A stretch of DNA of 64,000 nt. Source: Anaerolineae bacterium (GTDB lineage: Bacteria; Chloroflexota; Anaerolineae; B4-G1). Below the pieces are notes generated by a model. It saw only the letters and a list, made by a program, of their open reading frames with translations. It did not search any database and was not told where the DNA came from. The DNA lies in the NCBI GenBank assembly GCA_034432855.1, contig DAOUBA010000058.1:5483-69482 (forward strand), given 5' to 3'. Positions within the stretch are counted from its first letter, which is position 1; each line of letters starts with the position of its first letter. The translations under genes were made by a program, and so were the position numbers. Of this stretch, positions 16,157 to 33,706 are shown one piece after another.

Positions 16157-16342
16157 ATGATAGACACAATATTCAACCTGTGCATCTGGCTGTTGTACCG
16201 GCTGGCCGGCCTGCTCCACACAACTTACCAGGCGGTCAATGTATGGATTTTTGTGGTGATCTGGCCGTTGATCACCCTCGCCCTGATCGTAGCCGTGGTG
16301 GTGCAGCGGTCGGAGATTCGGCGACTGCGCGCCAGGAGGTGA
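16157..16342 (+). CDS. Small hydrophobic protein (61 aa, two predicted TM helices, basic C-tail), translationally coupled to the downstream radical SAM gene
   Basis: Strong RBS gaaggag 8 nt upstream of ATG; sequence MIDTIFNLCIWLLYRLAGLLHTTYQAVNVWIFVVIWPLITLALIVAVVVQRSEIRRLRARR; its stop lies 5 nt before the rSAM ATG. Confidence 0.5.
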   Translation: MIDTIFNLCIWLLYRLAGLLHTTYQAVNVWIFVVIWPLITLALIVAVVVQRSEIRRLRARR

Positions 16343-16347
16343 GCCCG

Positions 16348-17793
16348 ATGAAAGTCAAGATGATTCTGCCGGCGCTGACCGAGGCCAAAAGCCCGTATTG
16401 GCGCCCCATCAAGTACTCGCTCTTCCCGCCGTTGGGACTGGCGACGCTGGCGGGGTATCTCTCCGCGGACGACGAGGTCGTAATCCAGGATGAGCACGTC
16501 GAGACGCTGGGCCTGGACGACGAGCCGGACCTGGTTGCGATTGAGGTGTACATCACCTCGGCGCGACGCGCCTACGAACTGGCCGACCACTACCGGGCGC
16601 GGGGGGCGCACGTGGCGCTGGGCGGCCTGCACGTGACCGCACTGCCCGAGGAAGCCACCCGCCACGCCGATACGATCTTTCTCGGCCCCGGCGAGGACAC
16701 CTGGCCCGCCTTCCTGGCCGATTTGCGGGCGGGACGGCCGGGGCGGGTCTACCGCTCAACCGTGCGCTGCCTGGCGGGGATGCCACGCCCGCGCCGCGAT
16801 CTCATCAAGCGCCACCTCTATCTTGCGCCCAATTCGCTCGTCGTCTCGCGCGGCTGCCCGCACCACTGCGATTTCTGCTACAAGGATGCCTTCTTCGCGG
16901 GCGGCAAGTCGTTCTACACCCAGCCGCTGGACGAGGCGCTGGCGGAGATCGAATCGCTGCCGGGCCGCCACCTGTTTTTCCTCGATGATAACATCTTGGG
17001 CGACGCGCGTTTCGCAGCGGCTCTATTCGACGCGATGCGTGGGATGGGGCGGGTATGGCAGGCAGCGGGAACGGTGCAGGCTGTTCTCCAACCCGGCCTC
17101 CTGGAAAAGGCCGCGGCGAGCGGCCTGCGCAGCCTGTTCGTCGGCTTCGAGACGCTTCATCCGGGCAATCTGAAGGCGCAGCACAAGATGCATAATCTCA
17201 ACCGTGATTACCGCGTCGCCATCCGCCGTCTGCACGATCACGGGGTCATGGTCAACGCGAGTTTCGTCTTTGGGATGGACGAGGACAACGAGACGGTGTT
17301 CGACCGCACAGTGGAATGGGCGCTCGAGCAGGGCATCGAAACGGCGACGTTCCACATCCTCACCCCCTACCCCGGCACGGCGCTCTTTGCGAGGATGGAG
17401 GCCGAGGGGCGTATCACGACCTACGACTGGGACCTCTATGACACGCGCCACGTGGTCTTCCGTCCGGCCAGGATGTCGGCAGAGGCGCTGGAAGCAGGCT
17501 ACTGGCGCGCCTACGAGCAGTTCTACCGCTGGGGATCCATCTTCCGCGCAGCCTGGGTGCAAGGTACGTGGCGCGAGCGGCTACGCCATCTGGCCTATGC
17601 GGGGGGCTGGAAGAAATTCGAGCCGCTATGGGACGTGATCATCCGCGCCGGTCAGGTCTCGCGGTTTCTGCCGCTGTTGGAGAGGGTGCTGGATGGGGCA
17701 AGTTTGCAAGTAGGCAAGTTTGCAAGTATGCAAGCATGCAAGTATGCAGGTGGGCAGAGGTATGCAGGGTGGCAAACGGGGGTGCGTTTATGA
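16348..17793 (+). CDS. B12-binding radical SAM protein (class B rSAM with a DUF4070-type C-terminal region)
   Basis: N-terminal cobalamin-binding domain (..VVIQDEHVETLGLDDEPDLVAIEVYITSARRAYELA..); CxxxCxxC cluster SRGCPHHCDFCYKD; DUF4070-like C-terminus. RBS aggaggtgag. The last roughly 30 codons read through the 8-bp tandem repeats. Confidence 0.85.
   Translation: MKVKMILPALTEAKSPYWRPIKYSLFPPLGLATLAGYLSADDEVVIQDEHVETLGLDDEPDLVAIEVYITSARRAYELADHYRARGAHVALGGLHVTALPEEATRHADTIFLGPGEDTWPAFLADLRAGRPGRVYRSTVRCLAGMPRPRRDLIKRHLYLAPNSLVVSRGCPHHCDFCYKDAFFAGGKSFYTQPLDEALAEIESLPGRHLFFLDDNILGDARFAAALFDAMRGMGRVWQAAGTVQAVLQPGLLEKAAASGLRSLFVGFETLHPGNLKAQHKMHNLNRDYRVAIRRLHDHGVMVNASFVFGMDEDNETVFDRTVEWALEQGIETATFHILTPYPGTALFARMEAEGRITTYDWDLYDTRHVVFRPARMSAEALEAGYWRAYEQFYRWGSIFRAAWVQGTWRERLRHLAYAGGWKKFEPLWDVIIRAGQVSRFLPLLERVLDGASLQVGKFASMQACKYAGGQRYAGWQTGVRL
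17695..17775. repeat. Tandem 8-bp repeat array, GCAAGTNT x about 9-10, at the extreme 3' end of the rSAM ORF
   Basis: gcaagttt gcaagtag gcaagttt gcaagtat gcaagcat gcaagtat gcaggtgg ... read directly. The period is 8, not a multiple of 3. Confidence 0.6.
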
Positions 17794-19563: not shown

Positions 19564-19606
19564 TTGACAAATCAAAGGGATCGGTGTATAATGTTGTTAT
19601 AACAAG
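19564..19606 (+). promoter_or_regulatory. Consensus sigma70-like promoter TTGACA(19564-19569)-17-TATAAT(19587-19592), immediately followed by the palindrome TTGTTATAACAA (19595-19606), a GntR/HutC-type operator candidate
   Basis: ccttgacaaatcaaagggatcggtgtataatgttgttataacaagac read directly; the palindrome GT-TATA-AC fits the GntR-family GT-N-AC operator architecture; 46 bp upstream of the gntR-like gene. Confidence 0.55.
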
Positions 19607-19651: not shown

Positions 19652-20419
19652 ATGGTTGATCGCGTTGAGATTGCTAACGTCGGAGCCATAAGCAAAGACA
19701 GCCCTATTCCCCTCTATTTTCAGCTCAAGGAACTCTTGCGGCAGGAGATGGAAAGTGGACGCTGGCTGCCAGGACAGCAAATTCCTTCCGAACCGGAGTT
19801 GTGCGAAGCCTTCGGCGTGAGCCGTACGGTTGTGCGTCAGGCGCTAAGAGAGTTGGAGTATCAGGGGCTGCTATATCGTGAGCAAGGCAAGGGCACTTTT
19901 GTAGCACAGCCCAAGATCAGCGAGAGCCTGATGCAAGACCTGTCTGGCTTCTACGAGGATACGGTGTCCAAAGGACTCGCGCCGGTCACGCAGGTGTTAA
20001 GGCAAGAGGTTCAACCAGCCTCTAAGAAAATCGCCGACTATCTCCAGATCGAGCCCGGTGACAAAGTTATTGTGATCGAGCGTCTGCGCTCTGTGGGCAG
20101 CGAGCCTATTGTGTTGGTGACGACCTACCTTCCTTATGACTTGTGTCCCGATCTCGTCAACGAGGACCTGAGCACTCAATCCCTTTATGCTCTGTTGGAG
20201 GGCAAATATGGCCTGTTGCTTTCTCACGGTCGGCGGACAATCGAGGCTGTGGCAGCAAATCAGTACGAGGCTGAGCACTTGCACATCAAGGTAGGATCGC
20301 CACTTGTTCTGCTGAACAGCGTTAGCTATCTGAAGGATGGTCGCCCTATTGAGTACTTCCATGCAGTACACCGTGGCGACCGAAGCCGATTTGAGGTGGA
20401 GGTCGTCCGCAAACGGTAG
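19652..20419 (+). CDS. GntR family (HutC/UTRA subfamily) transcriptional regulator
   Basis: N-terminal HTH PLYFQLKELLRQEMESGRWLPGQQIPSEPELCEAFGVSRTVVRQALRELEYQGLLYREQGKGTFV plus a C-terminal UTRA effector domain. Confidence 0.85.
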   Translation: MVDRVEIANVGAISKDSPIPLYFQLKELLRQEMESGRWLPGQQIPSEPELCEAFGVSRTVVRQALRELEYQGLLYREQGKGTFVAQPKISESLMQDLSGFYEDTVSKGLAPVTQVLRQEVQPASKKIADYLQIEPGDKVIVIERLRSVGSEPIVLVTTYLPYDLCPDLVNEDLSTQSLYALLEGKYGLLLSHGRRTIEAVAANQYEAEHLHIKVGSPLVLLNSVSYLKDGRPIEYFHAVHRGDRSRFEVEVVRKR

Positions 20420-20814
20420 AGGGAGTCTCCTTCGACCAAATGACAGAACCTGGTAGCGATTAGAGGTTCGCATCAACAGTGAAAAGGTCCGTCCCAGGCG
20501 ACCATTCGTATCCTCAACAGCATCACCGGCGTCGAACTCCTGGCCGTGGTGCCATCCTACTTTCCTCGGTCACCGGCACGGCAATTCAAGCCCGTAGTAG
20601 GGGATGACCTCTACCAGGCCCAGGTCTACCGGCGGCTGGCGACTCCGATGCAACGGCATACCGACCGTGTTAGGACTAGCAGATAGGGTATAACAGCAAA
20701 GGAGGAAATATGAGAGTGAAGATTTGACCCATTTTCCAGAACTCGGCTGACGAGCGTCCCCGTCCTCCGGCACATCTGACGGGGAAACTAGCAAGATAGA
20801 AAAAAGGAGGAAAA

Positions 20815-22269
20815 ATGGATACAAAGGGGTTAACCCGCCGTGAGTTCATTCGCGGCGCAGCATTGACCGGCGTTGGACTGGCAGCAGCAGCATGCGCCCC
20901 CAAACCCACACCGACTGCAGCGCCTGCTGTGGCTCCTGCCCCTGCACTCCCTGCTGAAGAGAAGGAGAGGGAAAGACTGGCCCAGCAATACAAGAACGCC
21001 GAGCCCGGGCAAAAGTTCATGATTGGCCACATCACTTGGGGGCTGGCGCAAGAATATCTGATGATGTGCTACCAGGCTTGTGAACAGGCGTGTAGACAAC
21101 TCAATCTGGATTTTGCCGGTGCGGTGGCCGAGACCGATGCGGCGTGGCTCGAGACAACCGAGAGCATGATCGCTGCTGGTGCAAAGGCAATAGTCTACAA
21201 CTGCCCATCCGCGGCTATCCTGGCCGAGCTGGCAAGGATCTGCAACGAGAACAACGTGTTCATGGCCACACACTTCGGATATACCGGGGATATGTTCCCA
21301 GGAGACCTTGGGCCGCGATGGGTCGTAGACAACACGCCGCTGTCGGACGAGCAGACTTTTCTCCCATTGATGCTGCTCTTCGAGAAGATGAGGCAAAATG
21401 GGAAGACCAAGTTACTGCACCACCAGGCGCACAAAACGGCCGCTACCTGCTCCACCGTCTACATCAACCTTGGAGTCTTCCAGGCCTGGAAGTTCTATCC
21501 CGAGATGCAGGTGTTAGGCCACCAGTACGGCAACTGGAACTTTGAAGGTGGGAGAGCAGCAGCCGAGGCCTCGCTGGCAGTTCGGACGGACTATGAGGCT
21601 CTATGGGGCGCCAACGACTCGCAAACTACGGGCGCCTTGAGGGCATGCGAAGACCGTGGCTTGAGGATCGGCCCCTACACGGCCTCGAGAGACATGGAGA
21701 TGACTACGGCGGAAGAGATCCTGAAAGGGAATTTCCTCGTGACCGCTGGATTCGCCATTCCCTACTTTGGCGGAAGAATGGTCCCCATGCTCTACGATAT
21801 GTGCGTTGGCGCCTGGTATCCGCTGAAGGACGAGATGGTTCAGGCCGGCAGGATAGATTGTTACGGCCGGCCTGGTGAAGTCGAGCAACTGGCCGAGGCT
21901 GCCCGTATCACTTACCATCCGAGTTTCAAGCTGGGCCCAACCCAGGACAATCTGAATCAGGTATTGAAGCAAATGAAAGCGTCGCCGCCGGAGTATCCGT
22001 ACGACTTCAGGCTAATCTCTGTCTCAAAGTGTAGGGAACTCGGTCTGACGTATGACCGCCATGCCGGTGGCGGAACCTATCTGGGCCAGCATGACTATTA
22101 TTTCCCAGCGAAACTCAAAAAGTTCGGCAGCATCGAGGCCCTCAAGGCCCACGTCGCCGCTCTCCATGAGCACTTTCTCGACTTCAGCTGGGCCGACACG
22201 TGGGAGCAGGCAGAAGAGTATGCGAAAAAGTTTCCGCCGGAACTGAAGACGGAGCCTATCTGGCTGTAA
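20815..22269 (+). CDS. Periplasmic sugar-binding protein (PBP type I fold) with a Tat-type signal and lipobox; substrate-binding component of the adjacent ABC transporter
   Basis: Twin-arginine leader MDTKGLTRREFIRGAALTGVGLAAAAC; type-I PBP core FMIGHITWGLAQEY...AKAIVYNCPSAAILAELARICNENNVFMATHF; strong RBS aaaaaggagg. Confidence 0.7.
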   Translation: MDTKGLTRREFIRGAALTGVGLAAAACAPKPTPTAAPAVAPAPALPAEEKERERLAQQYKNAEPGQKFMIGHITWGLAQEYLMMCYQACEQACRQLNLDFAGAVAETDAAWLETTESMIAAGAKAIVYNCPSAAILAELARICNENNVFMATHFGYTGDMFPGDLGPRWVVDNTPLSDEQTFLPLMLLFEKMRQNGKTKLLHHQAHKTAATCSTVYINLGVFQAWKFYPEMQVLGHQYGNWNFEGGRAAAEASLAVRTDYEALWGANDSQTTGALRACEDRGLRIGPYTASRDMEMTTAEEILKGNFLVTAGFAIPYFGGRMVPMLYDMCVGAWYPLKDEMVQAGRIDCYGRPGEVEQLAEAARITYHPSFKLGPTQDNLNQVLKQMKASPPEYPYDFRLISVSKCRELGLTYDRHAGGGTYLGQHDYYFPAKLKKFGSIEALKAHVAALHEHFLDFSWADTWEQAEEYAKKFPPELKTEPIWL

Positions 22270-22361
22270 TGGCGGATTGGCGATTCCCTTTTCCACCCTA
22301 TCTGCTAGTTCTAACACGGTTGGTATGCGAGTAGCAAGAGTCGTGATTGGAAGAGGCTAGT

Positions 22362-23894
22362 ATGGCAATGCCGATGGATGTCCCATTGTTGGAAGTCAAG
22401 AGCGTTTCCAAGACCTTCGACGGAGTCGTGCGCGCCTTAGACGATGTGAGTATAGCCGTCTACCCCAATGAAATAGTGGGCGTTGTGGGAGAAAACGGGG
22501 CCGGCAAATCTACGCTCATGAAGATTCTGGTAGGTGTTTATTCGCCAGATAAGGGGGAATTGTATTATCGGGGAAGAAAAGTCCCATTTCCCAAGAATCC
22601 CAAAGAGGCGGCTCAAAGGGGAATCTCGATTGTCTATCAGGAAAAAGGGGTCATCCCCCTCTTGAGGGTATACCAATTCCTCCTCTTGGGGCACGAGGAT
22701 AAGTATGTCAGATTCTCGGGGCTGCAGATAGACAAAATGAAGGGGCTTGCAAGCGAGATATTGGAGGAGTTTCATGTAAAGTGCGATGTCGAGAGTTTTA
22801 TGTATGAACTGCCGCTTTCCACCCAGAAGATGGTTGAAATCGTGAGGGCGATTCTGAGTGTAAGGTTGGAGCATGGGGATGACGACGTTACGTCGGTCAT
22901 CATACTCGACGAGCCAACCGCACCGTTAACCATCGAGGAACGTCGGGAGTTGTTCAGTGACATACTGAACATGAAGAAGAATGCCTCGTTCGTCTTTGTC
23001 TCACACATCATACCCGAAGTGATGGAATTCACAGACAGAGTACACGTGCTGCGGGATGGTCGGCTGGTGGCTCACTACGACCTATCCAGGGAGAAAGTAA
23101 CAGAGGAGGATCTGTTCAGGGCGATAGTCGGTAGAGAATCTTCCGAGTACGTCTACAGACCGGAAACTAGGGTGGTAGGCGAGGAGATCGTTTTAGCGGT
23201 CAGGAATTTGACTAAGAGTGGCTGCTATTATGATGTCTCGTTCGAACTGCAGAAGGGCGAATGCATAGGAATCTTTGGGCCGGCGGGATCAGGCAAGAGC
23301 GAGATCATACAGACAATCGCCGGCCTCGTAAGTTTTGACAAGGGGGGCCTGAGCGTCAAAGGCCAAGAAGTGATGGCCGACGAGCCCCCTCACGCTAGAT
23401 TAGAGAGGGGTATTGGATATTTCTCGGGAGAGACCGGAAAAGAACTGTTTCTGAACTGGCCGATCACGAAGAACATCTCTATAGTCAATATTGAGAAGAT
23501 ATCAGGAAGGTCCATCCCGGTGATCAGTTTCAAAGCCGAGAGGAAGATGGCAGAAGAGATCGTAAGGAGGCTGAGAATCAAAGCCCCAAGCGTTAGCGCA
23601 GATTGCTATTCTCTGAGTGGCGGCAACAAGCAGAAGGTCTCTGTGGGGAAATGGATTGAGCGGAACCCCGACATACTTTTGCTAGAGGATCCGACGATAG
23701 GAATAGATGTGGGAGCCAGAAGCGATATCTTTGAAACCATCTTGGAGATGAAGATGCGCGGCACCTCGATGATCCTTGTGAGCGACGACCCTAAAGAATA
23801 CTCCATACTGTGCGATAGGATCATGTTCATCAAGAACGGGATCGTTCAAAGAGTCCTCAGTCCGGAACAGTTCGGGGAGATGATGGTGGCATGA
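22362..23894 (+). CDS. Sugar ABC transporter ATP-binding protein with duplicated NBDs (CUT2/RbsA-MglA type)
   Basis: Two Walker A motifs (GENGAGKST ; GPAGSGKSE), two signature motifs (LSTQKMVEI ; LSGGNKQKV) and a D-loop. Confidence 0.9.
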   Translation: MAMPMDVPLLEVKSVSKTFDGVVRALDDVSIAVYPNEIVGVVGENGAGKSTLMKILVGVYSPDKGELYYRGRKVPFPKNPKEAAQRGISIVYQEKGVIPLLRVYQFLLLGHEDKYVRFSGLQIDKMKGLASEILEEFHVKCDVESFMYELPLSTQKMVEIVRAILSVRLEHGDDDVTSVIILDEPTAPLTIEERRELFSDILNMKKNASFVFVSHIIPEVMEFTDRVHVLRDGRLVAHYDLSREKVTEEDLFRAIVGRESSEYVYRPETRVVGEEIVLAVRNLTKSGCYYDVSFELQKGECIGIFGPAGSGKSEIIQTIAGLVSFDKGGLSVKGQEVMADEPPHARLERGIGYFSGETGKELFLNWPITKNISIVNIEKISGRSIPVISFKAERKMAEEIVRRLRIKAPSVSADCYSLSGGNKQKVSVGKWIERNPDILLLEDPTIGIDVGARSDIFETILEMKMRGTSMILVSDDPKEYSILCDRIMFIKNGIVQRVLSPEQFGEMMVA

Positions 23895-24859
23895 AGATGG
23901 AGAGAAATCGGCTGATCGCGGTCATGATGCAGACCGTGAAGGCTCACCCTGTCATTGTCGTGCTAATCGCTCTCGTTGCGATGTTTTCAGGTTTATATCC
24001 GGAAAGATTTCTATCACCCTTGAATTTCTCGACAATTCTGAAACAGTTTGTAACGCTTACATTATTTGCGCTTGGCCCTTCAATGATCGTGGTGACCGGC
24101 TCGCTAGACCTGTCGTTCGTGGGGATCTGGATGCTGGGAGGTATCCTGGTGTGGCTTTTCACGCCGATCCTGGGGACATTCTCAATTCTTGTCATTCCCT
24201 TATTGGGGTTAGTCACGGGGTTCTTCGTCGGCGTCGTACAAGTCAAGGCAAAAATACCCTCTTTCATCCTGACGTTGAGTTTATTGGTCACATACTGGGG
24301 ATTGACGGCCACGCTCTCAGGGGGATACCCGAGGCCCGTTCGTGGATACGAGTTTATCACTGCGCCGTTGATACCCTATCTGCCCACGGCCTTTCTATGG
24401 TCTATCCCAATCATAGCCGCTGCCGTGTTCATCATGAAACGCACCAAGGTAGGCACGTATCTATACGCCATCGGGTCAAACGAAGAAGGGGCCCGGTTAG
24501 CCGGAATCAACGTTGATAGGTACAAGATACTGGCTTTCTCGTTAAGCGGACTGTTTACGGGCATAGGGTCAATTATCCTGTTCCAACACCTCGGAGGCGC
24601 GGCGCCGGTGGAACTCAATCTAAATAACATGGTGTGGCCGCTCGTTGCCATCGTTCTGGGTGGAACGCCGCTCGTTGGGGGGAGCGGCGGGCCCCAAAGA
24701 ACGATACTTGGCGCGTTGACCTTTGCCGTGGTGAATCGCGGATTGGTCCTGTCGCTATTGCACCCCGAGGCGATACAACTCCTTTTGGGGTTATTGCTCA
24801 TCATCTCCATTGTAGTGGGGAGTAGGGGGTTGAAGTTGAAAGGGGTAACGATCACATGA
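23891..24859 (+). CDS. ABC transporter permease (RbsC/branched-chain-type BPD_transp_2)
   Basis: Polytopic; ..GSNEEGARLAGINVDRYKILAFSLSGLFTGIGSII.. conserved permease loop; 4-nt overlap with the ATPase gene. Confidence 0.85.
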   Translation: MKMERNRLIAVMMQTVKAHPVIVVLIALVAMFSGLYPERFLSPLNFSTILKQFVTLTLFALGPSMIVVTGSLDLSFVGIWMLGGILVWLFTPILGTFSILVIPLLGLVTGFFVGVVQVKAKIPSFILTLSLLVTYWGLTATLSGGYPRPVRGYEFITAPLIPYLPTAFLWSIPIIAAAVFIMKRTKVGTYLYAIGSNEEGARLAGINVDRYKILAFSLSGLFTGIGSIILFQHLGGAAPVELNLNNMVWPLVAIVLGGTPLVGGSGGPQRTILGALTFAVVNRGLVLSLLHPEAIQLLLGLLLIISIVVGSRGLKLKGVTIT

Positions 24860-25833
24860 AGGGCGAGAAAACGATGGTCAGACCACCGCTTGCCCAGGAA
24901 TGGCTTCGAAGCAATAGGACTACAGTCGGGCTGATTGTCGCTGCGCTGGTGATTATCGCCGGATTTCAGGTGGTGAACCCTTTCTTTCTCAGTTATGATG
25001 GAATACTCACGTTGGTCTACGCTATGTCATACTTCCTGATAGCCGCCTGCGGATTGACTTTCGTCATCATGATGGGCTCTTTCGACTTCTCGGTGGTCAG
25101 CGTATTGAAACTCGCTGCGCTCCTATGCGTCCTGTACATTGACCGGCTCGGACTCTGGGTAATTCCCCTGGCTTTACTGATCAGCGTGGGGTTTGGCTTC
25201 ATCAACGGGCTATTCTTCGCCAGATTCAACGTCCCCTCGTTCATGGCGACGCTCGGCGTTTCCGTCGTGGTCGAGGGAATCGCGTTGTATCTCTCGAAAG
25301 GCTTTCTCCACATCATGGGCAATGCGACCTTCAGAGCCCTGGCAACGACCTTTATAGCCGGCTTGCCCTCGATATTCTATTGGGCGATGGGCATCTGGCT
25401 CATCAGCACTTTCGTGGCTCTGTGCACGCCCTTCGGAAGGCGCATCTACGCGGTCGGAGGCAACCCGATAGGCGCCGGACTCTCGGGCATAGACGTGGAG
25501 AGGCACAGAATTTATGGCTTCATGCTCAGCAGTTTCTTTGCCGGTCTGGCAGGAGTTTTGTACATGGCGCAGTTGGGGGGCGGCTCTATGGAAATCGGTG
25601 CAGACCTGGCCATACCGCTTTTCGCGAGCGTGGTCGCAGGCGGCACAGCCCTCACGGGAGGCATAGGGGGGCCGCATAGGACTCTGCTTGGAGTGGTCAT
25701 CCTTACCTGGCTGCGAGCCGGGATGTTAATGCTTGCAATCGGTCGTGATGTGCAGATGATCACGTTTGGCCTGATCGCCCTGGCCGTGGCTATCGCCACA
25801 ATAGATAGGAAACGGATAAAGTTTGTCAAGTGA
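24856..25833 (+). CDS. ABC transporter permease (second BPD_transp_2 subunit)
   Basis: ..AVGGNPIGAGLSGIDVERHRIYGFMLSSFFAGLAGVL..; overlaps the upstream permease by 4 nt. Confidence 0.85.
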   Translation: MKGEKTMVRPPLAQEWLRSNRTTVGLIVAALVIIAGFQVVNPFFLSYDGILTLVYAMSYFLIAACGLTFVIMMGSFDFSVVSVLKLAALLCVLYIDRLGLWVIPLALLISVGFGFINGLFFARFNVPSFMATLGVSVVVEGIALYLSKGFLHIMGNATFRALATTFIAGLPSIFYWAMGIWLISTFVALCTPFGRRIYAVGGNPIGAGLSGIDVERHRIYGFMLSSFFAGLAGVLYMAQLGGGSMEIGADLAIPLFASVVAGGTALTGGIGGPHRTLLGVVILTWLRAGMLMLAIGRDVQMITFGLIALAVAIATIDRKRIKFVK

Positions 25834-25875
25834 GTTCGCCGATTACCTCCGATAACAGCATCTTTCCGTCCGTAG

Positions 25876-26640
25876 ATGGCAGGCGCGTACATGCAGGCCT
25901 TGAAGAATAAAGTGGCTATCGTCACGGGTTCGTCGAGGGGCATTGGCAGAGCAATTGCCATTGCTTTTGCCAAAGAAGGCTGCAAGGTGGTGGTGAACTA
26001 TTGCCATTCCAGAGAGCATGCCGTCGCAGTTTCAGGGGAGATCGAAAAAGTTAACCCGAAAGGAAGTATCGTTGTCCAGGCTGATGTATCGGTGGAAGAC
26101 GACGTGGAAAGAATGGTGAACGAAACCATTGCCGCATTTGGAACACTGCACATCCTGGTGAATAACGCCAGTATTGCTCATAGATGCGCGTTCCTCGATA
26201 TGTCACTTGGCGAATGGGAACGCATGATCCGCAACGACCTCACGAGCGTCTTTCTGTGTACCCGCATCGCTATTCCACATATTCTGAAAAACGGCTGGGG
26301 CAGGATCATCAACATTGCTTCGACGTCTGGAATAACAGGCGGAACCTCCGGTGCCCATTACGCGGCTGCGAAGGGCGGCGTGATTGCGTTGACAAAGGCC
26401 CTCAGCAGCGAGTTCGCACCGTATGGAATAACGGTTAACGCCATCGTGCCAAGTAAAATAGAGACGGATATGCTGTGGGAATCTCTTGATGAGAAAGGCA
26501 GGGAGGCGACACTCAAAAAGATTCCTGTAGGAAGGTTCGGCAGGCCGGAGGAAATCGCAAACCTCGCTCTTTTTCTCGCTTCTGACGACGCCGGATACAT
26601 TACGGGCGAAACGATTGTAGCGTCAGGAGGATACCGATAA
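25876..26640 (+). CDS. SDR family oxidoreductase (short-chain dehydrogenase/reductase)
   Basis: TGSSRGIGRAIA cofactor motif; NNAS..; catalytic YAAAKGG (YxxxK). Confidence 0.85.
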   Translation: MAGAYMQALKNKVAIVTGSSRGIGRAIAIAFAKEGCKVVVNYCHSREHAVAVSGEIEKVNPKGSIVVQADVSVEDDVERMVNETIAAFGTLHILVNNASIAHRCAFLDMSLGEWERMIRNDLTSVFLCTRIAIPHILKNGWGRIINIASTSGITGGTSGAHYAAAKGGVIALTKALSSEFAPYGITVNAIVPSKIETDMLWESLDEKGREATLKKIPVGRFGRPEEIANLALFLASDDAGYITGETIVASGGYR

Positions 26641-26911
26641 GGGTGGGGCACTCTCCCCGGTTTTCTGCGCCTCTGATGGAGTCGGCGCGGAGGCGATCCG
26701 CCGGATCGCCCCCACTGGCGCGAGCACCCCATGCAAGGGAAGGAGGTGCTGCCAAGAGTCGGATTCAGCAATCGCTCTATGTAGACCCAAGAATGCCGAA
26801 ACGTGGAGAAGGGAGGTGAAATGAAGGTCAGATTTCAGAACAGTTAGGTTGAGGATCGTAGTAACCAAAGCCGGAACGTCTAATTTTCAGAAACTTGAGG
26901 AGGAAGGAAAA

Positions 26912-28174
26912 ATGAAAAGGTCTGTGTATCTGTTGATCGCTGTTGCTCTGCTGTTGAGCCTGGTAGTGAGCGCCTGTGCTCCCCAGCCTGGTCCGACGGC
27001 CGTCGCGACAGCAGTTGTCACTAAGGTGGTCGAGGTGCCGGTTGAAGTCGTGGCCACGCCGACGCCGCTGCCGGAAAAAGTGGGGTGCCCCGATAATATC
27101 GTCATCTGCTGGACCCCGCCCGATATCACGGGCGTCTTCAGGACGGCGACCGACTTTTTCATGAAGTCGGCTTTGGATGCCCGAAGGGCCGGGATCAACG
27201 TCTCGCTCGTCTCTCAGGCGCCTACCAGCCACTTGGCCTTCGGAGATCAGGTGGCCATCATCGAGGACTTTGTGGCCCGGAAGTGTGATGTCATCGCCAT
27301 CTCCCCCATCGAGGTCGAGGTGGTCATCCCGGCCATCAAGAAGGCCAATGAGGCGGGCATTCCGGTGATCATCGTCAACCTGCTGGAACCCATCGCCGGC
27401 GTGGAGGTGGCTTCCTACATCGGCTTCGACAACACCGAAGCCGCGAGGATCACCGCCTTTGCCCTGGTGGACTACTTCGGAGGGCCGGGTATTCTGGGTA
27501 CAGGTCGTAAGGTGGACGTAGAACTGGACACGTATCTCGACCTGGCCTGGTGGGAGGCTCTCTACGAGACCATCACCGAGGAGGAGAGGGCAGCGGTCAA
27601 GGCCAAGGTGGCCATCATCGAGGGCGTCGCCGGGGGCTTCTTCTCCCAGGCGCGGCTGAATGGCTTCCATAGCGTCGTGGACGAGTTCCCGGGTATCGAG
27701 ATCGTGGGAGCGCCCTGCGCTGCGGACTGGAACCGCGAGAAGGGAATCAAGTGTGCCGAGGACTTTCTGACCGCCTATCCCGATCTGGACGGCATCTGGG
27801 CTGCTTCCAACGAGATGGGTCTGGGGGCCATGCTCGCTGCCGCGGGTGCTGGTCGGCTGGAGTTGGCCGGGGAAGGCCCGGTGCTGGGTGATGGTAAGGT
27901 GGCCATCTTCACCAACGACGTCACGCCCGAGTCTGCCGACCGGGTAGCCGAGGGGAAGATGATCGCCGAGACCACTCATGGCTTCCCAGACTGGGGGTGG
28001 TATGGAACCGAGTTTGGGGTGACTATGGCCTGCGGCGGGCAGGTGCCCAAGATCTTTGACATCCGGCCCCGCATCATGTATCAGGCAAACGCGCGTCTGT
28101 TCTATCCCGAACCGGCGCTGGAGCCCATTGACTGGGAGACCATTAGCCAGGGCGGGTCGCCGCGCATGCCATAG
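26912..28174 (+). CDS. Periplasmic sugar-binding lipoprotein (PBP type I), substrate-binding protein of the second ABC system
   Basis: Lipoprotein signal MKRSVYLLIAVALLLSLVVSAC; PT-rich linker; type-I PBP core ..ISPIEVEVVIPAIKKANEAGIPVIIVN..; RBS gaggaggaagg. Confidence 0.75.
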   Translation: MKRSVYLLIAVALLLSLVVSACAPQPGPTAVATAVVTKVVEVPVEVVATPTPLPEKVGCPDNIVICWTPPDITGVFRTATDFFMKSALDARRAGINVSLVSQAPTSHLAFGDQVAIIEDFVARKCDVIAISPIEVEVVIPAIKKANEAGIPVIIVNLLEPIAGVEVASYIGFDNTEAARITAFALVDYFGGPGILGTGRKVDVELDTYLDLAWWEALYETITEEERAAVKAKVAIIEGVAGGFFSQARLNGFHSVVDEFPGIEIVGAPCAADWNREKGIKCAEDFLTAYPDLDGIWAASNEMGLGAMLAAAGAGRLELAGEGPVLGDGKVAIFTNDVTPESADRVAEGKMIAETTHGFPDWGWYGTEFGVTMACGGQVPKIFDIRPRIMYQANARLFYPEPALEPIDWETISQGGSPRMP

Positions 28175-28371
28175 CCATAAGTGTGCAACTCGGCAAGGGA
28201 GGGTCGCATCCTTCTGCTGGAGGGGCGACCCTCCCCTCCGAATGGAAACTGAGGCTGTCCCTAGTACTCTGTCAACCATGATTGGGTGGTAGAAATCGGC
28301 GTCAGAGACTCCTACCGTAGTTTTGTACCGGAAACTAGCCCCTCGTGGGCTTGTGAGGAAGGAGACGCAAG

Positions 28372-29133
28372 ATGAGGCTGGTTGATAAAGTTGCAATCAT
28401 CACAGGTGCAGGCGCAGGGATCGGTCGTTCTACTGCGCTCCTCTTTGCCCGGGAGGGTGCCAGGGTCGTGGTTGCCGACCGCGATCCGCAAGAGGGAGCA
28501 AAGACCGTGAGCCTGATCGAGGAGAACGGCGGCGCGGCAATATTCGTTCAGGTGGATGTGTCTAAAGCGGCCGACGTGAGGAAGATGGTCGAGACAGCCA
28601 TCGAGACGTACGGTAAACTCGATATCCTGGTAAACAATGCCGGGATTTACGTGCAGGCCGACGTGGTGGAAACCACGGAAGAAGAATGGGATCGGATTTT
28701 GAACGTCAACCTGAAAGGGGCTTTTCTGTGTTCCAAGTACTGTATTCCTGAGATGATTAAGAATGGAGGCGGGTCTATTGTCAACGTCGGGTCTGAGGCG
28801 GGCATCGCGGGCATCAAGAACCAGGTGGCTTACAATGTATCCAAGAGCGGGATGATAGCTCTGACCAAGAGTACGGCCATAGATTTTGCGGCCCACAATA
28901 TCAGGGTCAATTGTGTCTGCCCCGGCACCACGGAAACACCCTTGGTCAAGATGGCACTGGAGAGAGCGCCAGACCCGGCAGCGGCGCGCCGCGCCCTGGA
29001 ACAAGTTCGTCCCGCCAACAGGCTGGGGCGGCCGGAGGAGATAGCCGCCGGTATTCTCTATCTGGCCTCTGATGAATCCCCGTACGCCACGGGTTCAATA
29101 CTCTCTATAGACGGCGGGTACACAGCTCAATAA
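28372..29133 (+). CDS. SDR family oxidoreductase
   Basis: TGAGAGIGRSTA; NNAGI; YNVSKSG (YxxxK). Confidence 0.85.
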   Translation: MRLVDKVAIITGAGAGIGRSTALLFAREGARVVVADRDPQEGAKTVSLIEENGGAAIFVQVDVSKAADVRKMVETAIETYGKLDILVNNAGIYVQADVVETTEEEWDRILNVNLKGAFLCSKYCIPEMIKNGGGSIVNVGSEAGIAGIKNQVAYNVSKSGMIALTKSTAIDFAAHNIRVNCVCPGTTETPLVKMALERAPDPAAARRALEQVRPANRLGRPEEIAAGILYLASDESPYATGSILSIDGGYTAQ

Positions 29134-29140
29134 GGAGGCC

Positions 29141-30637
29141 GTGCAAACCATGTCTTCGCTTATCTTGCGTACTGAGGCGATTGACAAGCGCTACCCGGGC
29201 GTTCACGCGCTGAATCACTTTGATTTCGATCTCTGCGAGGGAGAAGTCCATATTCTCCTGGGCGAGAACGGGGCGGGCAAGTCAACCTTCATGAAGATTC
29301 TCAGCGGCTCTGTGCCGCCGGATAGTGGCCGGATTTTCCTGCGCGGCCGGCAGGTTCACATCGTAAGCCCGCATCATGCACGAGAATTGGGAATAGGCAT
29401 GGTTTATCAAGAACTAAGCCTCATTCCCCGTCTTAGTGTAGCCGAGAATATTTTCCTGGGCAGACTCCCCAAGCGCAGACCATTCGGGACCGTTGATTGG
29501 CCCGCAGCCATGTCGCAGGCCAGGAGAATCTTGGATGATCTGGGCGTTGACATTGACCCCGGGGAACGCGTCGGCAACCTCAGTATGGGCGAGCAGCAAT
29601 TGATCGAGATCGCCAAGGCTTTGTCTATGAATGCGCAAATCCTGCTGCTGGATGAGCCTACCTCGGCCCTATCCGATGAGGAGCGCGAGCGACTCTTCAG
29701 CATCTTGCGAGGGTTTCAGGAGAGGGGGGTGGCGATCATCTATGTCTCCCACCGCCTGGCCGAGGTTCCTCGGATCGGGCATCGAGTGACCGTCCTGCGC
29801 GACGGCGCGAAGGTAGACACCCTTCCGGTAGACCAGGCTGATGAAGCCACCTTGATTCGGATGATGGTGGGCCGCGAGTTGGGAGAACAATTCCCCAAAG
29901 AGAAAGTGAAGCGTGGCCGGGAACTGTTGAGGGTTGAAGGTTTGACGGTAAAAGGGGTGCTGAACAACCTCAGCCTGAGCGTTCACGAAGGTGAGATTGT
30001 GGGCATTTCTGGCCTGTTGGGGGCGGGCCGCACAGAGTTTGCTCGCGCCCTCTTTGGGCTTGATCCGATTGACGGGGGTGAGATCTTTGTAGATGGAAGG
30101 AAGGTCAAAATCACTTCCTCCTCGGAGGCTATTGCGTTAGGCCTCGGTTATCTCACCGAAAGCAGGAGGGATGGACTCGTGCCGCGATTGCCCATCCCGC
30201 CCAACATCACTTTGGCCAACCTGAAAAGGATGTGTCAACTGGGCTTTCTCAAACGCAATGAAGAAAGAACGTTGGCAGAGACATACGTCAAAGAATTGAA
30301 CATCCATACATCCAGGTTGAGTCAAATGGTCGAGTTTCTCAGCGGCGGCAATCAGCAAAAGGTCGCCCTGGCCAAGTGGTTGTGTACTCAGGCAAAAGTC
30401 CTGATTTTCGATGAGCCTACCAGAGGGATCGACGTGGGAGCCAAGGCGGAGGTCTTCCGTCTGATGAACGACCTGGCGAAAAAAGGGGTGGGGATCATCT
30501 TGATTTCCTCCGAGATGCCGGAGATTCTAGCCATGTCCGACCGTATTCTGGTAATGGCCAGGGGTTCCTTCGTGGCCGAATATGCGGCCGGGCAGGCATC
30601 TCAGGAAGATCTCTTGAGAGACGCCGTAGCAAAATGA
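29141..30637 (+). CDS. Sugar ABC transporter ATP-binding protein with duplicated NBDs
   Basis: Walker A GENGAGKST and a second NBD (GLLGAGRTE); signature LSMGEQQLIEI / LSGGNQQKVAL. Confidence 0.9.
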   Translation: MQTMSSLILRTEAIDKRYPGVHALNHFDFDLCEGEVHILLGENGAGKSTFMKILSGSVPPDSGRIFLRGRQVHIVSPHHARELGIGMVYQELSLIPRLSVAENIFLGRLPKRRPFGTVDWPAAMSQARRILDDLGVDIDPGERVGNLSMGEQQLIEIAKALSMNAQILLLDEPTSALSDEERERLFSILRGFQERGVAIIYVSHRLAEVPRIGHRVTVLRDGAKVDTLPVDQADEATLIRMMVGRELGEQFPKEKVKRGRELLRVEGLTVKGVLNNLSLSVHEGEIVGISGLLGAGRTEFARALFGLDPIDGGEIFVDGRKVKITSSSEAIALGLGYLTESRRDGLVPRLPIPPNITLANLKRMCQLGFLKRNEERTLAETYVKELNIHTSRLSQMVEFLSGGNQQKVALAKWLCTQAKVLIFDEPTRGIDVGAKAEVFRLMNDLAKKGVGIILISSEMPEILAMSDRILVMARGSFVAEYAAGQASQEDLLRDAVAK

Positions 30638-30653
30638 GAAAGGAGCACACATA

Positions 30654-31688
30654 ATGATCAAGAATCTTTCGGGATCGAGCGTTTCGGACTTGGGACGGGT
30701 CAAGACGTGGGTGGCTACGCCTCAACTGCGGGTACGGCTGGTGATCCGAGCCGTACTGGTGTTGGCCGTGATGCTATTCATCTACTATGTTGCGACGGCG
30801 CCCCGCTTCTTCAGTGTTGCCAACGCAGCCAACGTGGCCGCGCGAACGGCGCCGGGCATCATCTTGGCCGTGGCGCAGACGATGGTTATCATCTCGGCGG
30901 GCATTGACTTGTCCGTAGGGGCCATCCTCGCCTTTTCAGGCTCGTTGGCTTCGATAGCCTATTGCTATTGGGGCGTCCCCGTCTGGCCGGCTATGCTGCT
31001 CGCCCTTGCAGCAGGCGCCCTGTTGGGCTGTATCAACGGCCTGATTATCATGAAGGGCAAGATTCCCGATTTTATCGCTACACTGGGGATGATGGGCACA
31101 GCCCGTGGCATAGCCCTCATCCTGACCGGTGGGTTGCCTGTCCCTTCTCACCTGACCGCCGTTACTCTCAAGGCTTATCTGCCCAATGAGATCATTTGGA
31201 TGGGGAGCGGGAACATCCTTGGCTTCCCGGCAGGTGCCCTTATCGCCTTGCTGGTCGTCGTTGCCGGTTGGGTGATCCTGAGGCACACCGGTTTTGGACG
31301 CGCTATCTATGCCGTCGGTGGGAATAGAGAGGCGGCCAGGGTCTCGGGCATTGATGTTGACCGTACCAAGATCATGGTCTACACCCTCTCGGGATTGCTG
31401 GCGGGGCTGGCCAGCCTAGTGCTAGTAGGGCGCATGAACTCTGCCAACGCTCTGATGGCAGAACCGGCGAATCTGGAAAGCATCTCGGCTGCGGTCATCG
31501 GGGGCACCAACCTCTTCGGGGGCGAGGGTGGCGTGATCGGCTCCTTGATCGGTGCTCTCATCATGGGCATCCTGGGCAACGTTCTGAACCTGCATAATGT
31601 GCAGGATTTTGCGCAGCGGGTCTTTATGGGGTTGCTGATTATCGGCGTCGTACTGTTCGATCAGTTACGGAGAAGGTACGGCGCCTGA
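30654..31688 (+). CDS. ABC transporter permease (BPD_transp_2)
   Basis: ..AVGGNREAARVSGIDVDRTKIMVYTLSGLLAGLASLV.. polytopic. Confidence 0.85.
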   Translation: MIKNLSGSSVSDLGRVKTWVATPQLRVRLVIRAVLVLAVMLFIYYVATAPRFFSVANAANVAARTAPGIILAVAQTMVIISAGIDLSVGAILAFSGSLASIAYCYWGVPVWPAMLLALAAGALLGCINGLIIMKGKIPDFIATLGMMGTARGIALILTGGLPVPSHLTAVTLKAYLPNEIIWMGSGNILGFPAGALIALLVVVAGWVILRHTGFGRAIYAVGGNREAARVSGIDVDRTKIMVYTLSGLLAGLASLVLVGRMNSANALMAEPANLESISAAVIGGTNLFGGEGGVIGSLIGALIMGILGNVLNLHNVQDFAQRVFMGLLIIGVVLFDQLRRRYGA

Positions 31689-31712
31689 AACTGGTGAAAG
31701 GTGAGGGAGGCT

Positions 31713-32576
31713 ATGAAGTATTCTATAAGCAACTGGATATATGCCGACGAGCCCTTGCGGATCACTTTCCAACGCCTGCAGAAGTACGGTTACGACGGTG
31801 TAGAACTGGTAGGCGAGCCTCAGCGTTACAACGTCCAGGAGATCAACGGGCTTTGCCAGGAGTTCGGGCTTTCCGTCCTCTCCGTCCTCGGCTGGGCCAT
31901 CTGGCCCCTGGAGAGAGACCTGGCTCACCCGGACCCTCAGATGCGCCGGAAAGCCCTCAAGTACGCCGCCGAATGCGTGGACCTGGCCGTGGCCGTAGGG
32001 GCCCCCCTGGTGGTGGTTATCCCCGCCTCGGCAGGGAGAACCAGCCCGATTGGCCGGCTGGATAGCGGGGAAGCCTGGAAGGAGGCGGTGGCGAGGGAAT
32101 GGGACTATGCTGTGGAATCCGTCAAGGCCGCAGCAGCCTGTGCTGAGGAATACGGCGTGCTGATCGCCGTAGAGCCCATTAATCGGTACGAGAGCTTTCT
32201 CGTCAACAACGTGGATCAGGGCCTTCGCTTCGTCCAGGAGGTGAACTCTACAGTGGCAAGGCTGCATCTCGATGCGTTCCATATGAACATCGAAGAGAAG
32301 GATGTGGCCGAGGCTGTCCGCAAGGCCGGTGATCTCCTGGTCAACATGCACATTTCCGATTCCAACCGGGCGGCAGTGGGCCACGGCCACACCGACTTTA
32401 GGGCCATCATGCAGGCTTTGCAAGAGATCAACTACCAGGGTATACTTACCATGGAGCCTGTGCCGCCGGTGCCCGATGCCTTCATGGCTATCTCGATGGA
32501 AGAGTTCCTGCCCCTCAGGGATGTTTACGCTGAGGAGTGCATCACGCGCCTTCGCCAATACGAACGAGAGGTCTGA
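31713..32576 (+). CDS. Sugar phosphate isomerase/epimerase (xylose-isomerase-like TIM barrel)
   Basis: AP_endonuc_2 / XylA-like fold: ..LIAVEPINRYESFLVNNVDQGLRFVQEV..LHLDAFHMNIEEKD..; RBS gagggagg before ATG 31713. Confidence 0.75.
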   Translation: MKYSISNWIYADEPLRITFQRLQKYGYDGVELVGEPQRYNVQEINGLCQEFGLSVLSVLGWAIWPLERDLAHPDPQMRRKALKYAAECVDLAVAVGAPLVVVIPASAGRTSPIGRLDSGEAWKEAVAREWDYAVESVKAAAACAEEYGVLIAVEPINRYESFLVNNVDQGLRFVQEVNSTVARLHLDAFHMNIEEKDVAEAVRKAGDLLVNMHISDSNRAAVGHGHTDFRAIMQALQEINYQGILTMEPVPPVPDAFMAISMEEFLPLRDVYAEECITRLRQYEREV

Positions 32577-32622
32577 ACGCATCAGCCTGCTTGTGTGCGG
32601 ATTGTAGGGATAAAGGTTAAGA

Positions 32623-33486: not shown

Positions 33487-33579
33487 GTGAAGTGAGGTGG
33501 GGCGCATGTAAATCTTGCGGGGGGACGAACGTCGGTTGAGCGCCGCCGTGTGCTCAAAGCACACGGCTGAGCCCACCGA

Positions 33580-33600
33580 AAGCCCTGCCGGGCTTATTTT
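33580..33600 (+). terminator. Putative intrinsic terminator (AAGCCC-tgcc-GGGCTT + TATTTT) after the epimerase gene, within a hairpin-rich 220-bp intergenic region
   Basis: Read directly; a further perfect 10-bp-stem hairpin sits at 33545-33567 (gccgtgtgct-caa-agcacacggc). Confidence 0.4.
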
Positions 33601-33706
33601 CAGCCCCTTAAGGAGGCTTTTGCCTGTTCAGCCCGGTGCTTTAGCGCCGGGCACGAGACAGTCAGCACTTCCCCCCCAAGTGCTACATGCGCCCAGTGAG
33701 GTGCAC

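Follow-up and report, generated by a model that had tools for sequence, protein, structure and literature searches.

Organization of the locus

In the stretch of DNA that was analyzed, which is 64,000 nucleotides long and is referred to as the window, a GntR/HutC-family regulator gene with GntR and UTRA domains (19652..20419, + strand) is followed on the same strand by an SBP gene (20815..22269; 484 amino acids, Peripla_BP_4), an ABC ATPase gene (22362..23894), and permease genes. We read the N-terminus of the SBP as a twin-arginine-type signal with a lipobox. The SBP cistron is enclosed by the two arms of an inverted repeat, both given here on the + strand: the 5' arm at 20656..20689 and the 3' arm at 22295..22328. 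The ATG of the ATPase gene is located 33 nt past the 3' arm; the public gene call at position 11548 of contig L001 corresponds to position 22362 of the window.

The likely operon promoter (19564..19605, + strand) consists of TTGACA and TATAAT separated by 17 nt (12/12 consensus positions, at 19564-19592) and is the sole consensus promoter in the region. A unique palindrome, TTGTTATAACAA, abuts the promoter at 19594-19605 and is a candidate GntR/HutC operator; the arrangement of promoter and palindrome recurs directly upstream of the SBP gene in three loci without arms (L004-L006). The initial annotation had proposed the repeat itself as an operator, a role for which the palindrome at the promoter is the likelier sequence, the arms being non-palindromic. 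The consensus scan predicted no promoter or terminator between the gntR promoter and the ATPase gene. Because there are no consensus matches to either between the arms, we infer that both arms are co-transcribed, probably on the sense strand of a single transcript that starts from the promoter at 19564, has the regulator gene as its first gene, and continues through the SBP, ATPase, and permease genes. No site for an outward promoter inside the 5' arm passed the scan in the window, L019, or L153. The best candidate found by eye in the 5' arm has 8/12 matches, with a C at the last -10 position. In locus L012, a promoter-like site overlaps the arm, and in the clade of this locus the arm may fall outside the mRNA.

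The inverted repeat

The repeat was initially described as a 20-mer, GTTAGGACTAGCAGATAGGG, with an inverted partner. The 20-mer is present, though at 20669-20688, one nucleotide away from the position first given (20668-20687); its partner is at 22296-22315 and is identical at 19/20 positions, as reported. The similarity extends further than these 20 bp. The arms are 34 nt long with two differences between 20656-20689 (GCATACCGACCGTGTTAGGACTAGCAGATAGGGT) and 22295-22328, and a looser extension of the pairing covers 41 nt at 88% identity. They are 1.6 kb apart and enclose the SBP gene, in agreement with the initial annotation. The genome-wide count of the 20-mer that had been envisaged was made in the 64-kb window only, where two copies were found irrespective of whether the 20-mer, a 14-nt core, or the 34-mer was used as the query, and with relaxed matching included. 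Both copies of the 34-mer in the window belong to this one locus. Shuffled versions of the window contained no matches to the 20-mer at ≤3 mismatches (expected count 0.00).

The 3' arm is a clean 34-nt insertion, bordered on one side by the T-run that follows the SBP gene and on the other by a conserved spacer (GTAGC..CGTGATT). We dropped the idea that this arm had diverged from a copy of the ATPase start, since the true ATPase start region is located at ~22348-22380 and the arm is an insertion.

Relation of the arms to IS982-family termini

Homologous stretches of 34 nt, identical to the 5' arm of the window at 29-30 of 34 positions, were found in four orthologous loci (L019, L056, L146, and L153). 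In these loci the same 34 nt contain the last codons and the TAA stop codon of an IS982-type transposase remnant, which tblastn places directly before the arm. The ORF in L056 (2032-2313), for example, ends in ...LAEILTPHVIAYQPC*, with the final codons and the stop inside the arm. This ORF and its homologues have matches to the C-terminal half of NF033520 (IS982 family transposase; E-values from 1e-10 to 1e-23) and also match Pfam DDE_Tnp_1.

In L153, the homologue of the 3' arm (2204-2237) forms the left end of an insertion of 1,162 bp. This element (2204-3365) starts with ACCCTATCTGCTAGTTT... and ends with the inverted terminus ...AAACTAGCAGATAGAGT; it is flanked by T5/T6 runs on both sides, where relatives free of the IS have a single T6 run. 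In those relatives, T-run and spacer are contiguous, with no 3' arm between them. The L153 element thus has two inverted ends and a flanking direct duplication, a combination not preserved in the window.

The consensus for the ends of IS982 elements is AC-N6-T-N5-TT (PMC7335449). The sequence at 22295-22310 of the window, ACCCTATCTGCTAGTT, fits this consensus, and so does the reverse complement of 20674-20689, ACCCTATCTGCTAGTC, except that the last T is a C. By homology to the four loci above, we assign the arms in the window to the IS982 family as relics: the 5' arm as a right terminal inverted repeat (IRR), with its outer terminus (...GATAGGGT) towards the SBP gene, and the 3' arm as a left terminal inverted repeat (IRL) of a second IS982-type element. 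No similarity to a transposase was detected anywhere in the 64-kb window, and contiguity of the arm with a transposase gene is found in L019, L056, L146, and L153, not in the window. We considered 20420-20655 as a decayed transposase remnant and dropped this candidate because the segment has no detectable homology to the remnant at either the protein or the DNA level. Among the loci examined no intact autonomous copy of the IS was recovered, and a scan of viral contigs for the arm was also empty. In more distant remnants (L148-L152 and L154), the ends (...GCAGATAGAGT) differ or are similar only in part, and a second terminus is not clearly recognizable.

Very probably, an ancestor acquired two IS982-family elements, one at each side of the SBP gene, and the arms are what survives of their termini. 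The first element would have inserted shortly before the ribosome-binding site, its transposase oriented towards the SBP gene, and its right end would have become the 5' arm. The second would have inserted just after the T-run behind the SBP stop codon, its left end becoming the 3' arm. Loss of both element bodies in this genome would have reduced the pair to an inverted repeat of 34 bp with its outer termini turned towards the gene.

The likeness to IS982 elements comprises the NF033520 match of the transposase remnant, termini that begin with AC and fit the family consensus, the size of the L153 element compared with a family mean of ~1 kb, and its short duplicated T-run flanks. In contrast to such elements, the window keeps neither a transposase nor the second terminus of either element, and its two ends come from separate insertions that face each other across a gene. 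Furthermore, the sole complete element bounded by terminal inverted repeats (TIRs), that of L153, carries a vWA-like ORF instead of a transposase.

A probable duplication or recombination in the leader

As the initial annotation had noted, the sequence AAAGGAGG precedes a start codon twice, at 20698-20705 and at 20803-20810. The ATG follows after 4 nt in each case, and the surrounding 15-nt blocks (20698-20712 and 20803-20817) are 93% identical. The first block leads into the five-codon ORF ATG AGA GTG AAG ATT TGA (MRVKI), which is present as described but is located at 20710-20727 rather than 20709-20726. The second block (20803..20817, + strand) contains the functional Shine-Dalgarno sequence and ATG of the SBP gene, the start used in the public annotation. 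The third partial copy of the 20-mer, ACTAGCAAGATAG, was likewise found where it had been reported (20787-20799, + strand); 12 of its 13 bases match and one A is inserted. Colinear with the second Shine-Dalgarno-ATG block, it appears to duplicate the outermost 12 nt of the IS terminus in decayed form and to be part of a second copy of the leader.

Relatives have AAAGGAGG at a distance of 7-14 nt past the IS terminus, and after it the real ATG of the SBP gene (MKTE...). The mini-ORF is not conserved, and its position is that of the true SBP start codon in these relatives; the relic Shine-Dalgarno sequence and mini-ORF (20698..20727, + strand) are probably a decayed ancestral SBP start. Similarity between the codons of the mini-ORF and the 5' coding region of the relatives' SBP genes is not significant beyond the Shine-Dalgarno block, so the reading as an old start rests on position. 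Positions 20776-20900 of the window align with a second, in-frame SBP start in L147 (score 110, reached by 0/500 shuffles), and the SBP of that locus (P0018) carries both N-termini. Judging by position, a duplication or recombination in the leader would have produced the mini-ORF, the third copy, and the doubling of AAAGGAGG-ATG as by-products. Such an event would have placed another N-terminal (signal-peptide) variant, together with a ribosome-binding site of its own, downstream of the old SBP start, which would then have decayed to the five-codon ORF.

The proposal that the leader acts as an attenuator found no support. In addition to the lack of conservation of the mini-ORF, the scan yielded no terminator, and 20560-20830 folds locally no better than shuffled sequences (z = -0.28). 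A search against Rfam 15 gave no match at the gathering score in the window, and a single chance-level match at E≤1 within 20380-22420.

A predicted long-range helix

When 20600-22400 was folded, all 34 of the 34 possible arm-arm pairs were part of the minimum-energy structure, with pair probabilities of at least 0.997 for every pair other than the terminal one (0.92). The predicted helix is an uninterrupted 34 bp, 32 Watson-Crick and 2 G.U pairs, and the energy of the arm-arm duplex is -64 kcal/mol. The long-range helix is also part of the minimum-energy fold in 6/6 of the other loci with arms. The arms should pair in the mRNA because neither promoter nor terminator is predicted from the gntR promoter to the ATPase gene. 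An RNase III-type stem comprises at least ~20 bp of near-perfect double-stranded RNA, which the predicted 34 bp exceed, provided that the single transcript derived from these predictions exists.

Conservation of the arms

Six loci other than the window have arms, and ~130 orthologous operons have no such repeat; the flanking of SBP orthologs by these repeats, which had been suggested as a check, is confined to a few relatives. The arms in the window are 85-94% identical to those in L153 and L146, compared with 63-67% identity at third codon positions of the SBP gene. In the comparisons with the window the arms are the better conserved (p from 5e-5 to 6e-7), a contrast that may be inflated, since the window locus is mosaic at its 5' end and the gene body may thus differ in history from the arms. 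Among L153, L146, L019, and L056, the arm is 94-100% identical and the adjoining transposase pseudogene 82-91%, a modest difference.

The arms of L003 have diverged by ~30% (22-27 of 34 positions identical) and still pair over 27-28 nt. Two-sided changes, six in four sequences, were reached by 4/500 shuffles. The IS bodies were lost in two lineages, the window and L003, and both arms were kept; 5' relics with no visible partner, in L065 and L147, look decayed. In a sister clade (L012, L071, and L072), a different complementarity of 19-31 nt connects the same position in the leader with the region of the ATPase start codon. Differences that give G.U outnumber those that give A.C (12/15, p=0.018), an excess inflated by the use of a G.U-tolerant score to set the ends of the helix; when identity sets them, ~7-9 of 10-12 are G.U, which is not significant. 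We accordingly downgraded the G.U bias as proof of selection at the RNA level, as it depends on the choice of helix ends. Taken as they stand, conservation and compensatory changes hint at selection on the arms. Co-variation of the arms could also reflect concerted evolution of intact IS copies, or gene conversion.

Discussion

The explanation that we favor combines the origin of the arms as IS982 termini with a consequence of the helix for expression; as a whole, this combination seems to us about evenly balanced between right and wrong. If the repeat has a regulatory role, it would act through this long-range RNA helix, a mechanism absent from the initial annotation. Once the 3' arm is transcribed, the arms would pair and loop out exactly the SBP cistron. 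A helix of ~34 bp is a natural substrate for RNase III. Cleavage would free an SBP mRNA that has its own ribosome-binding site and both ends in duplex and would hence be stable, while the part encoding the ATPase and permeases would receive an exposed, monophosphorylated 5' end and be less stable. Binding protein would then be in excess of the membrane components, as is usual. That the helix forms and matters for expression we hold with middling confidence; that it is maintained by selection is more doubtful. More specifically, and only tentatively, the termini of dead IS elements may have been co-opted as a processing and stabilizing stem in the manner of rRNA, which would excise the SBP cistron and set its level apart from those of the regulator, ATPase, and permeases; the other route taken in the sister clade would then point to recurrent selection for pairing between leader and junction.

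The most serious competing possibility, to which we give a considerable probability, is that the arms are inert, IS982 termini left by deletions and without effect on expression, with their similarity due to slow change or recent history. The arms could be on separate RNAs, or the helix might not form in vivo, or form without consequence. The IS origin is the same in this account as in the one that we favor, most orthologous operons do without any repeat, the arms of four loci are conserved only modestly above the adjacent pseudogene, concerted evolution of IS copies can explain the co-variation, and the G.U bias is not robust. Yet the arms outlast the third codon positions of the SBP gene in comparisons with the window, complementarity is kept in L003 at ~30% divergence, and both arms were retained in two lineages after the loss of the IS body; the partnerless 5' relics look decayed, and the sister clade has an independent complementarity at equivalent positions. 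In addition, a helix of -64 kcal/mol is hard to avoid if the arms are co-transcribed. The arms might instead be recombination sites that flip the SBP gene off (phase variation), inasmuch as inverted repeats of similar size flank known invertible segments and the arms bracket the whole gene with its ribosome-binding site. We regard this as very unlikely: no recombinase or invertase appears in the gene and Pfam lists for the 10 kb on each side, all contigs with two arms (L001, L002 and two similar contigs, L003, L146, and L153, a small sample) have one orientation, and the 3' arm of the sister clade is the start codon region of the ATPase gene itself.

Binding of both arms by a protein, either the adjacent GntR/HutC regulator, with looping, or a transposase-derived protein, is just as improbable. 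A GntR/UTRA regulator gene is located directly upstream, and transposases bind IS termini; however, the arms are not palindromic, and 34 bp far exceeds a HutC-type operator, for which the palindrome at 19594-19605, also present upstream of the SBP gene in the arm-free loci, is the better candidate. Nor are the two-sided changes in L003 expected for sites read by one protein, and the window contains no transposase gene. The initial annotation had further suggested terminal repeats of a small cassette. It was correct as to the kind of sequence, the ends of transposable elements, and not as to topology: because the termini of the arms face the gene, the SBP gene lies between two former insertions, not inside a cassette. 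With its order IS-gene-IS, the locus looks like a composite transposon by which the SBP gene was brought in, a reading that we consider highly improbable, since outer termini that point at a gene cannot end an element containing it. Relatives free of the IS share the order SBP-ATPase-permease, so the repeat pair did not bring the SBP gene; they also share the junctions, and the downstream element is a simple insertion at a T-run. Control by a leader peptide, in which translation of the mini-ORF steers alternative structures and SBP expression, has in its favor a strong Shine-Dalgarno sequence 4 nt before the ATG of a five-codon ORF just past the 5' arm. This is extremely improbable given that the ORF is not conserved and relatives start the real SBP there, that no terminator is predicted, and that the unremarkable local fold has no Rfam match.

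Compared with known systems, the locus shares with composite transposons (IS-cargo-IS, e.g., Tn10 and Tn5) two related IS-type elements that flank a gene, with inner ends that form an inverted repeat around it. It differs in that the flanked SBP gene was already part of an operon, nothing indicates that the unit ever moved, and the elements are deleted to 34 bp. In ribosomal RNA operons, RNase III excises the 16S and 23S precursors at processing stems. There, as predicted here, a long-range helix between flanks delimits a unit of 1.5 kb in a longer transcript, whereas the unit in the window is an mRNA cistron and its helix would be of recent transposon origin, found in few related genomes. Stem-loops that follow binding-protein genes, such as the malE-malF REP and the one after hisJ, protect the upstream mRNA. 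The result to be expected is shared, namely that a single operon yields more SBP than membrane components, and relatives free of the IS have a local hairpin and T-run at the equivalent place; those hairpins are local, in contrast to the 3' partner in the window, which pairs with a leader 1.6 kb away.

The Correia repeat-enclosed elements (NEMIS) of Neisseria are MITEs with TIRs that form folded structures in mRNA, where RNase III binds or cleaves them (PMC2649163). They resemble the present case in having TIRs of a transposable element within a transcript and a long, perfect helix predicted beside the start of a gene. The arms of a Correia element, however, are ~100-150 nt apart and belong to one element, whereas those in the window derive from two, with 1.6 kb and a complete translated cistron between them, and cleavage here is a prediction. 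The 5' and 3' UTRs of the icaR mRNA of Staphylococcus aureus pair with one another, which is reported to be linked to RNase III (PMC3868564). In both cases a leader would pair with a region past the stop codon of one gene. The icaR mRNA is monocistronic, and its short pairing is directed at the ribosome-binding site and keeps translation down, whereas in the window the SBP site would be free and the mRNA polycistronic.

Two IS982-type insertions and subsequent deletions, an ordinary course of events, can account for the striking repeat at this locus, and no new regulatory element is needed to explain it. The case calls for caution in the discovery of RNAs through covariation, as inverted repeats of mobile elements co-vary for reasons other than RNA. 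If the helix is real and used, the locus would clearly exemplify the reuse of transposon ends in the post-transcriptional control of one cistron of an operon, with a geometry closer to that of rRNA processing stems than to known mRNA elements, and it would offer a simple and testable way in which ABC importers could come to have more binding protein than membrane components.

The inverted repeat and its operon

The initial annotation placed a 20-mer at 20668-20687; it is present, at 20669-20688, one base further to the right. The inverted copy at 22296-22315 (one mismatch) and the partial direct copy at 20787-20799 (ACTAGCAAGATAG) were where described. The ribosome-binding block AAAGGAGG with an ATG does occur twice (20698-20712 and 20803-20817), and the five-codon mini-ORF MRVKI exists, at 20710-20727 rather than 20709-20726. 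There are no further copies of the 20-mer in the window at up to three mismatches, and none of 100 shuffles matched it at that threshold. The repeat extends beyond the original description: over its full length of 34 nt, the 5' arm (20656-20689, GCATACCGACCGTGTTAGGACTAGCAGATAGGGT) and the 3' arm (22295-22328) differ at two positions.

The repeat encloses the gene of a sugar-type substrate-binding protein (SBP; Peripla_BP_4, 20815-22269). This gene is preceded by a GntR/UTRA regulator gene (19652-20419) and followed by an ABC ATPase gene starting at 22362, two permeases, a short-chain dehydrogenase, and a second transporter, all on the + strand. The window belongs to contig CAZSEQ010000001.1 (assembly GCA_964605935.1). 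The sole strong promoter match is a perfect sigma-70 consensus (TTGACA-17-TATAAT, 19564-19592). The palindrome directly 3' of it (TTGTTATAACAA; joint span 19564-19605), which occurs once in the window, is a likely candidate for the HutC-type operator of this transporter family. Between this promoter and the ATPase gene no promoter or terminator was predicted, and no Rfam family matched in the window. The leader by itself folds no better than shuffles, and with no terminator predicted before the ATPase gene the proposed attenuation-like leader was not borne out. In the related loci L004-L006, where the GntR gene forms the operon end, the SBP gene is immediately preceded by a promoter and palindrome nearly identical to these (TATAATGTTGTTGTAACATGA).

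The region from about 20000 to 34000 has a G+C content of 51-59%, against 61-69% in its flanks (one 1-kb exception, 27001-28000, is at 63%), and holds two sugar-type ABC systems and short-chain dehydrogenases. The lower G+C and the gene content suggest that the block was acquired horizontally, which would fit the IS traces described below. A tandem array of the octamer GCAAGTAT (6.4 copies, 17698-17748) lies at the 3' end of a B12-binding radical SAM ORF (16180-17793).

Related loci

Many relatives of the binding protein share 65-90% identity with it. From genomes and metagenomes we compiled a set of 154 loci and searched both flanks of every SBP gene for complementarity, with shuffles as the control. 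The same repeats flank SBP orthologs in a few loci only; almost all of the 154 are without flank complementarity. Those that have it split into two groups. In group 1, L003 (an Anaerolineae MAG), L146, and L153 have, like the window itself, the arm sequence of the window on either side of the SBP gene; for L019 and L056 the 5' arm is present, and the contigs stop before the 3' side. Group 2 (L012, 2932-2951/4650-4669; L071, 1922-1940/3515-3533; L072, 192-222/1942-1972) has a different complementarity of 19-31 nt, between the same leader position and the ATPase ribosome-binding site, start codon, and first codons, 1.6 kb downstream. It may stem from an inverted micro-duplication or from selection. 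The group 2 leader resembles a decayed IS982 end (reverse complement ACCAATGCT...).

Directly 3' of the SBP stop, L012 (about 4451-4573) and L072 (about 1724-1850) contain an extra hairpin-rich insertion of ~125 nt, bounded by a perfect 12-nt inverted repeat (ACCCCGTTAGAA/TTCTAACGGGGT), which looks like a MITE. Among loci L011-L144, binding proteins 65-90% identical occur in MAGs labeled Anaerolineae, Armatimonadota, Atribacterota, Spirochaetota, Desulfobacterota, Bacillota, and even one Thermoplasmata bin; this spread over many phyla suggests extensive horizontal transfer, or mis-binning for some of the MAGs.

The arms as relic ends of IS982-type elements

In L056, the 5' arm contains the final codons and stop of an ORF (2032-2313, C-terminal end ...LAEILTPHVIAYQPC) that matches the final part of the DDE_Tnp_1 domain. 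Every homologue of this ORF is a short fragment, many of them with an identical ...YQPC end, and they match the C-terminal half of NF033520 (NCBIfam, IS982 family transposase; E 1e-10 to 1e-23). A tblastn search found this transposase remnant directly upstream of the arm in L019, L056, L146, and L153, and none there in the window, L003, or group 2. In L153, the 3' arm (2204-2237) directly follows the T-run after the SBP stop and opens a 1,162-bp insertion, which closes with an inverted terminus (...AAACTAGCAGATAGAGT) and a second T-run before the usual spacer and the ATPase start; IS-free relatives have one T-run, contiguous with the same spacer. The arm's outer 16 nt (ACCCTATCTGCTAGTT) match the conserved IS982 end pattern, AC-N6-T-N5-TT (PMC7335449). 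From the remnant's stop inside the 5' arm, the L153 insertion, and the fit to the end pattern, we infer with high confidence that the 5' and 3' arms come from two separate IS982-type elements, as a right and a left end, respectively.

The outer termini of both elements point toward the SBP gene. This orientation and the IS-free relatives exclude the suggestion that the arms are the ends of a small cassette carrying the SBP gene, and likewise a composite transposon that brought it in. An invertible segment carrying the gene is unlikely: no recombinase is encoded within 10 kb, and the orientation is the same in all contigs. In the window, the bodies of both elements have been lost; the 64 kb contain no transposase similarity and no further copies of the IS end, no IS derivation is recognisable in the 235 nt that precede the 5' arm, and the 3' arm is followed by 2 nt and then the normal spacer.

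The L153 element (2204-3365), with IS982-type ends and T-run duplications on both sides, has, in place of a transposase, a 226-aa ORF whose matches to the vWA domain are weak, and may be a non-autonomous or cargo-carrying derivative. More distant IS982-type remnants ending ...CCCGCAGATAGAGTA lie beside unrelated genes in L150 (3370-3410) and L154 (about 455-475); a wider group of elements therefore has the last ~11 nt of the terminus (GCAGATAGRGT) in common.

The mini-ORF and the SBP start

In the relatives, the IS terminus is followed by a gap of 7-14 nt, AAAGGAGG, and the true SBP start, MKTE...; in the same place the window has AAAGGAGG and the mini-ORF. The functional start in the window lies 105 nt further on and encodes another variant of the N-terminus (MDTKGLTRREF...). 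Ahead of this start come the partial direct copy, a decayed duplicate of the final 12 nt of the IS terminus, and then a AAAGGAGG of its own. Sequence past the mini-ORF ATG has no significant similarity to the relatives' SBP coding sequence, so it is from position that the mini-ORF would be the decayed old SBP start. In L147 (341-1885, protein P0018), two alternative N-termini follow one another in the same reading frame (MDTEGNSKKITRRQ... then ...MGTRSFSRREFLRGAALTG); the second has its own AAGGAGG and a start that aligns strongly with the window's SBP start; this is the architecture of the window's mini-ORF and real start.

A predicted long-range helix in the mRNA

Transcription from 19564 would place both arms on a single RNA. 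In the fold of 20600-22400, all 34 arm-arm pairs are within the minimum-energy structure, with pair probabilities of at least 0.997 except for the terminal pair (0.92); the isolated duplex has -64 kcal/mol. The helix is likewise predicted for all six other loci with arms. L153 and L019 have an 11/12 promoter match upstream of the arm, within the IS remnant. In the group 2 clade the arm may be outside the mRNA, since a 10/12 match overlaps it in L012.

Several observations are consistent with selection on the helix, which we regard as possible but rather doubtful. The window arms are identical to those of L153 and L146 at 29-32 of 34 positions, against 63-67% at SBP third codon positions; in L003, about a third of arm positions have changed with pairing kept. 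Two-sided changes (six pairs, four sequences) were matched by 4 of 500 shuffles, and the independent complementarity of group 2 at corresponding positions also counts for selection. The same similarity and covariation could arise through concerted evolution of IS copies, without selection on the RNA: copies within one genome evolve in concert, and the two ends co-vary for the transposase. The window locus is mosaic, and its gene and arms may therefore differ in history. In the four loci that keep a remnant, the arm is conserved only modestly better than the adjoining pseudogene, and the G.U excess (12/15) loses significance when identity is used to define where the helix ends.

At 34 bp, such a helix is a textbook substrate of RNase III. 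The predicted helix ends 8 nt ahead of the first ribosome-binding site and resumes 25 nt past the stop codon, so that cleavage would leave the SBP cistron intact with both ends paired, and would free the 5' end of the ATPase message. In Neisseria, RNase III is known to target inverted repeats of transposon origin within mRNAs (PMC2649163). The repeat is of ordinary origin, as relic IS982 ends; for the long-range helix they would form in the mRNA, a role, such as the RNase III processing proposed here, is physically plausible, if weakly supported.
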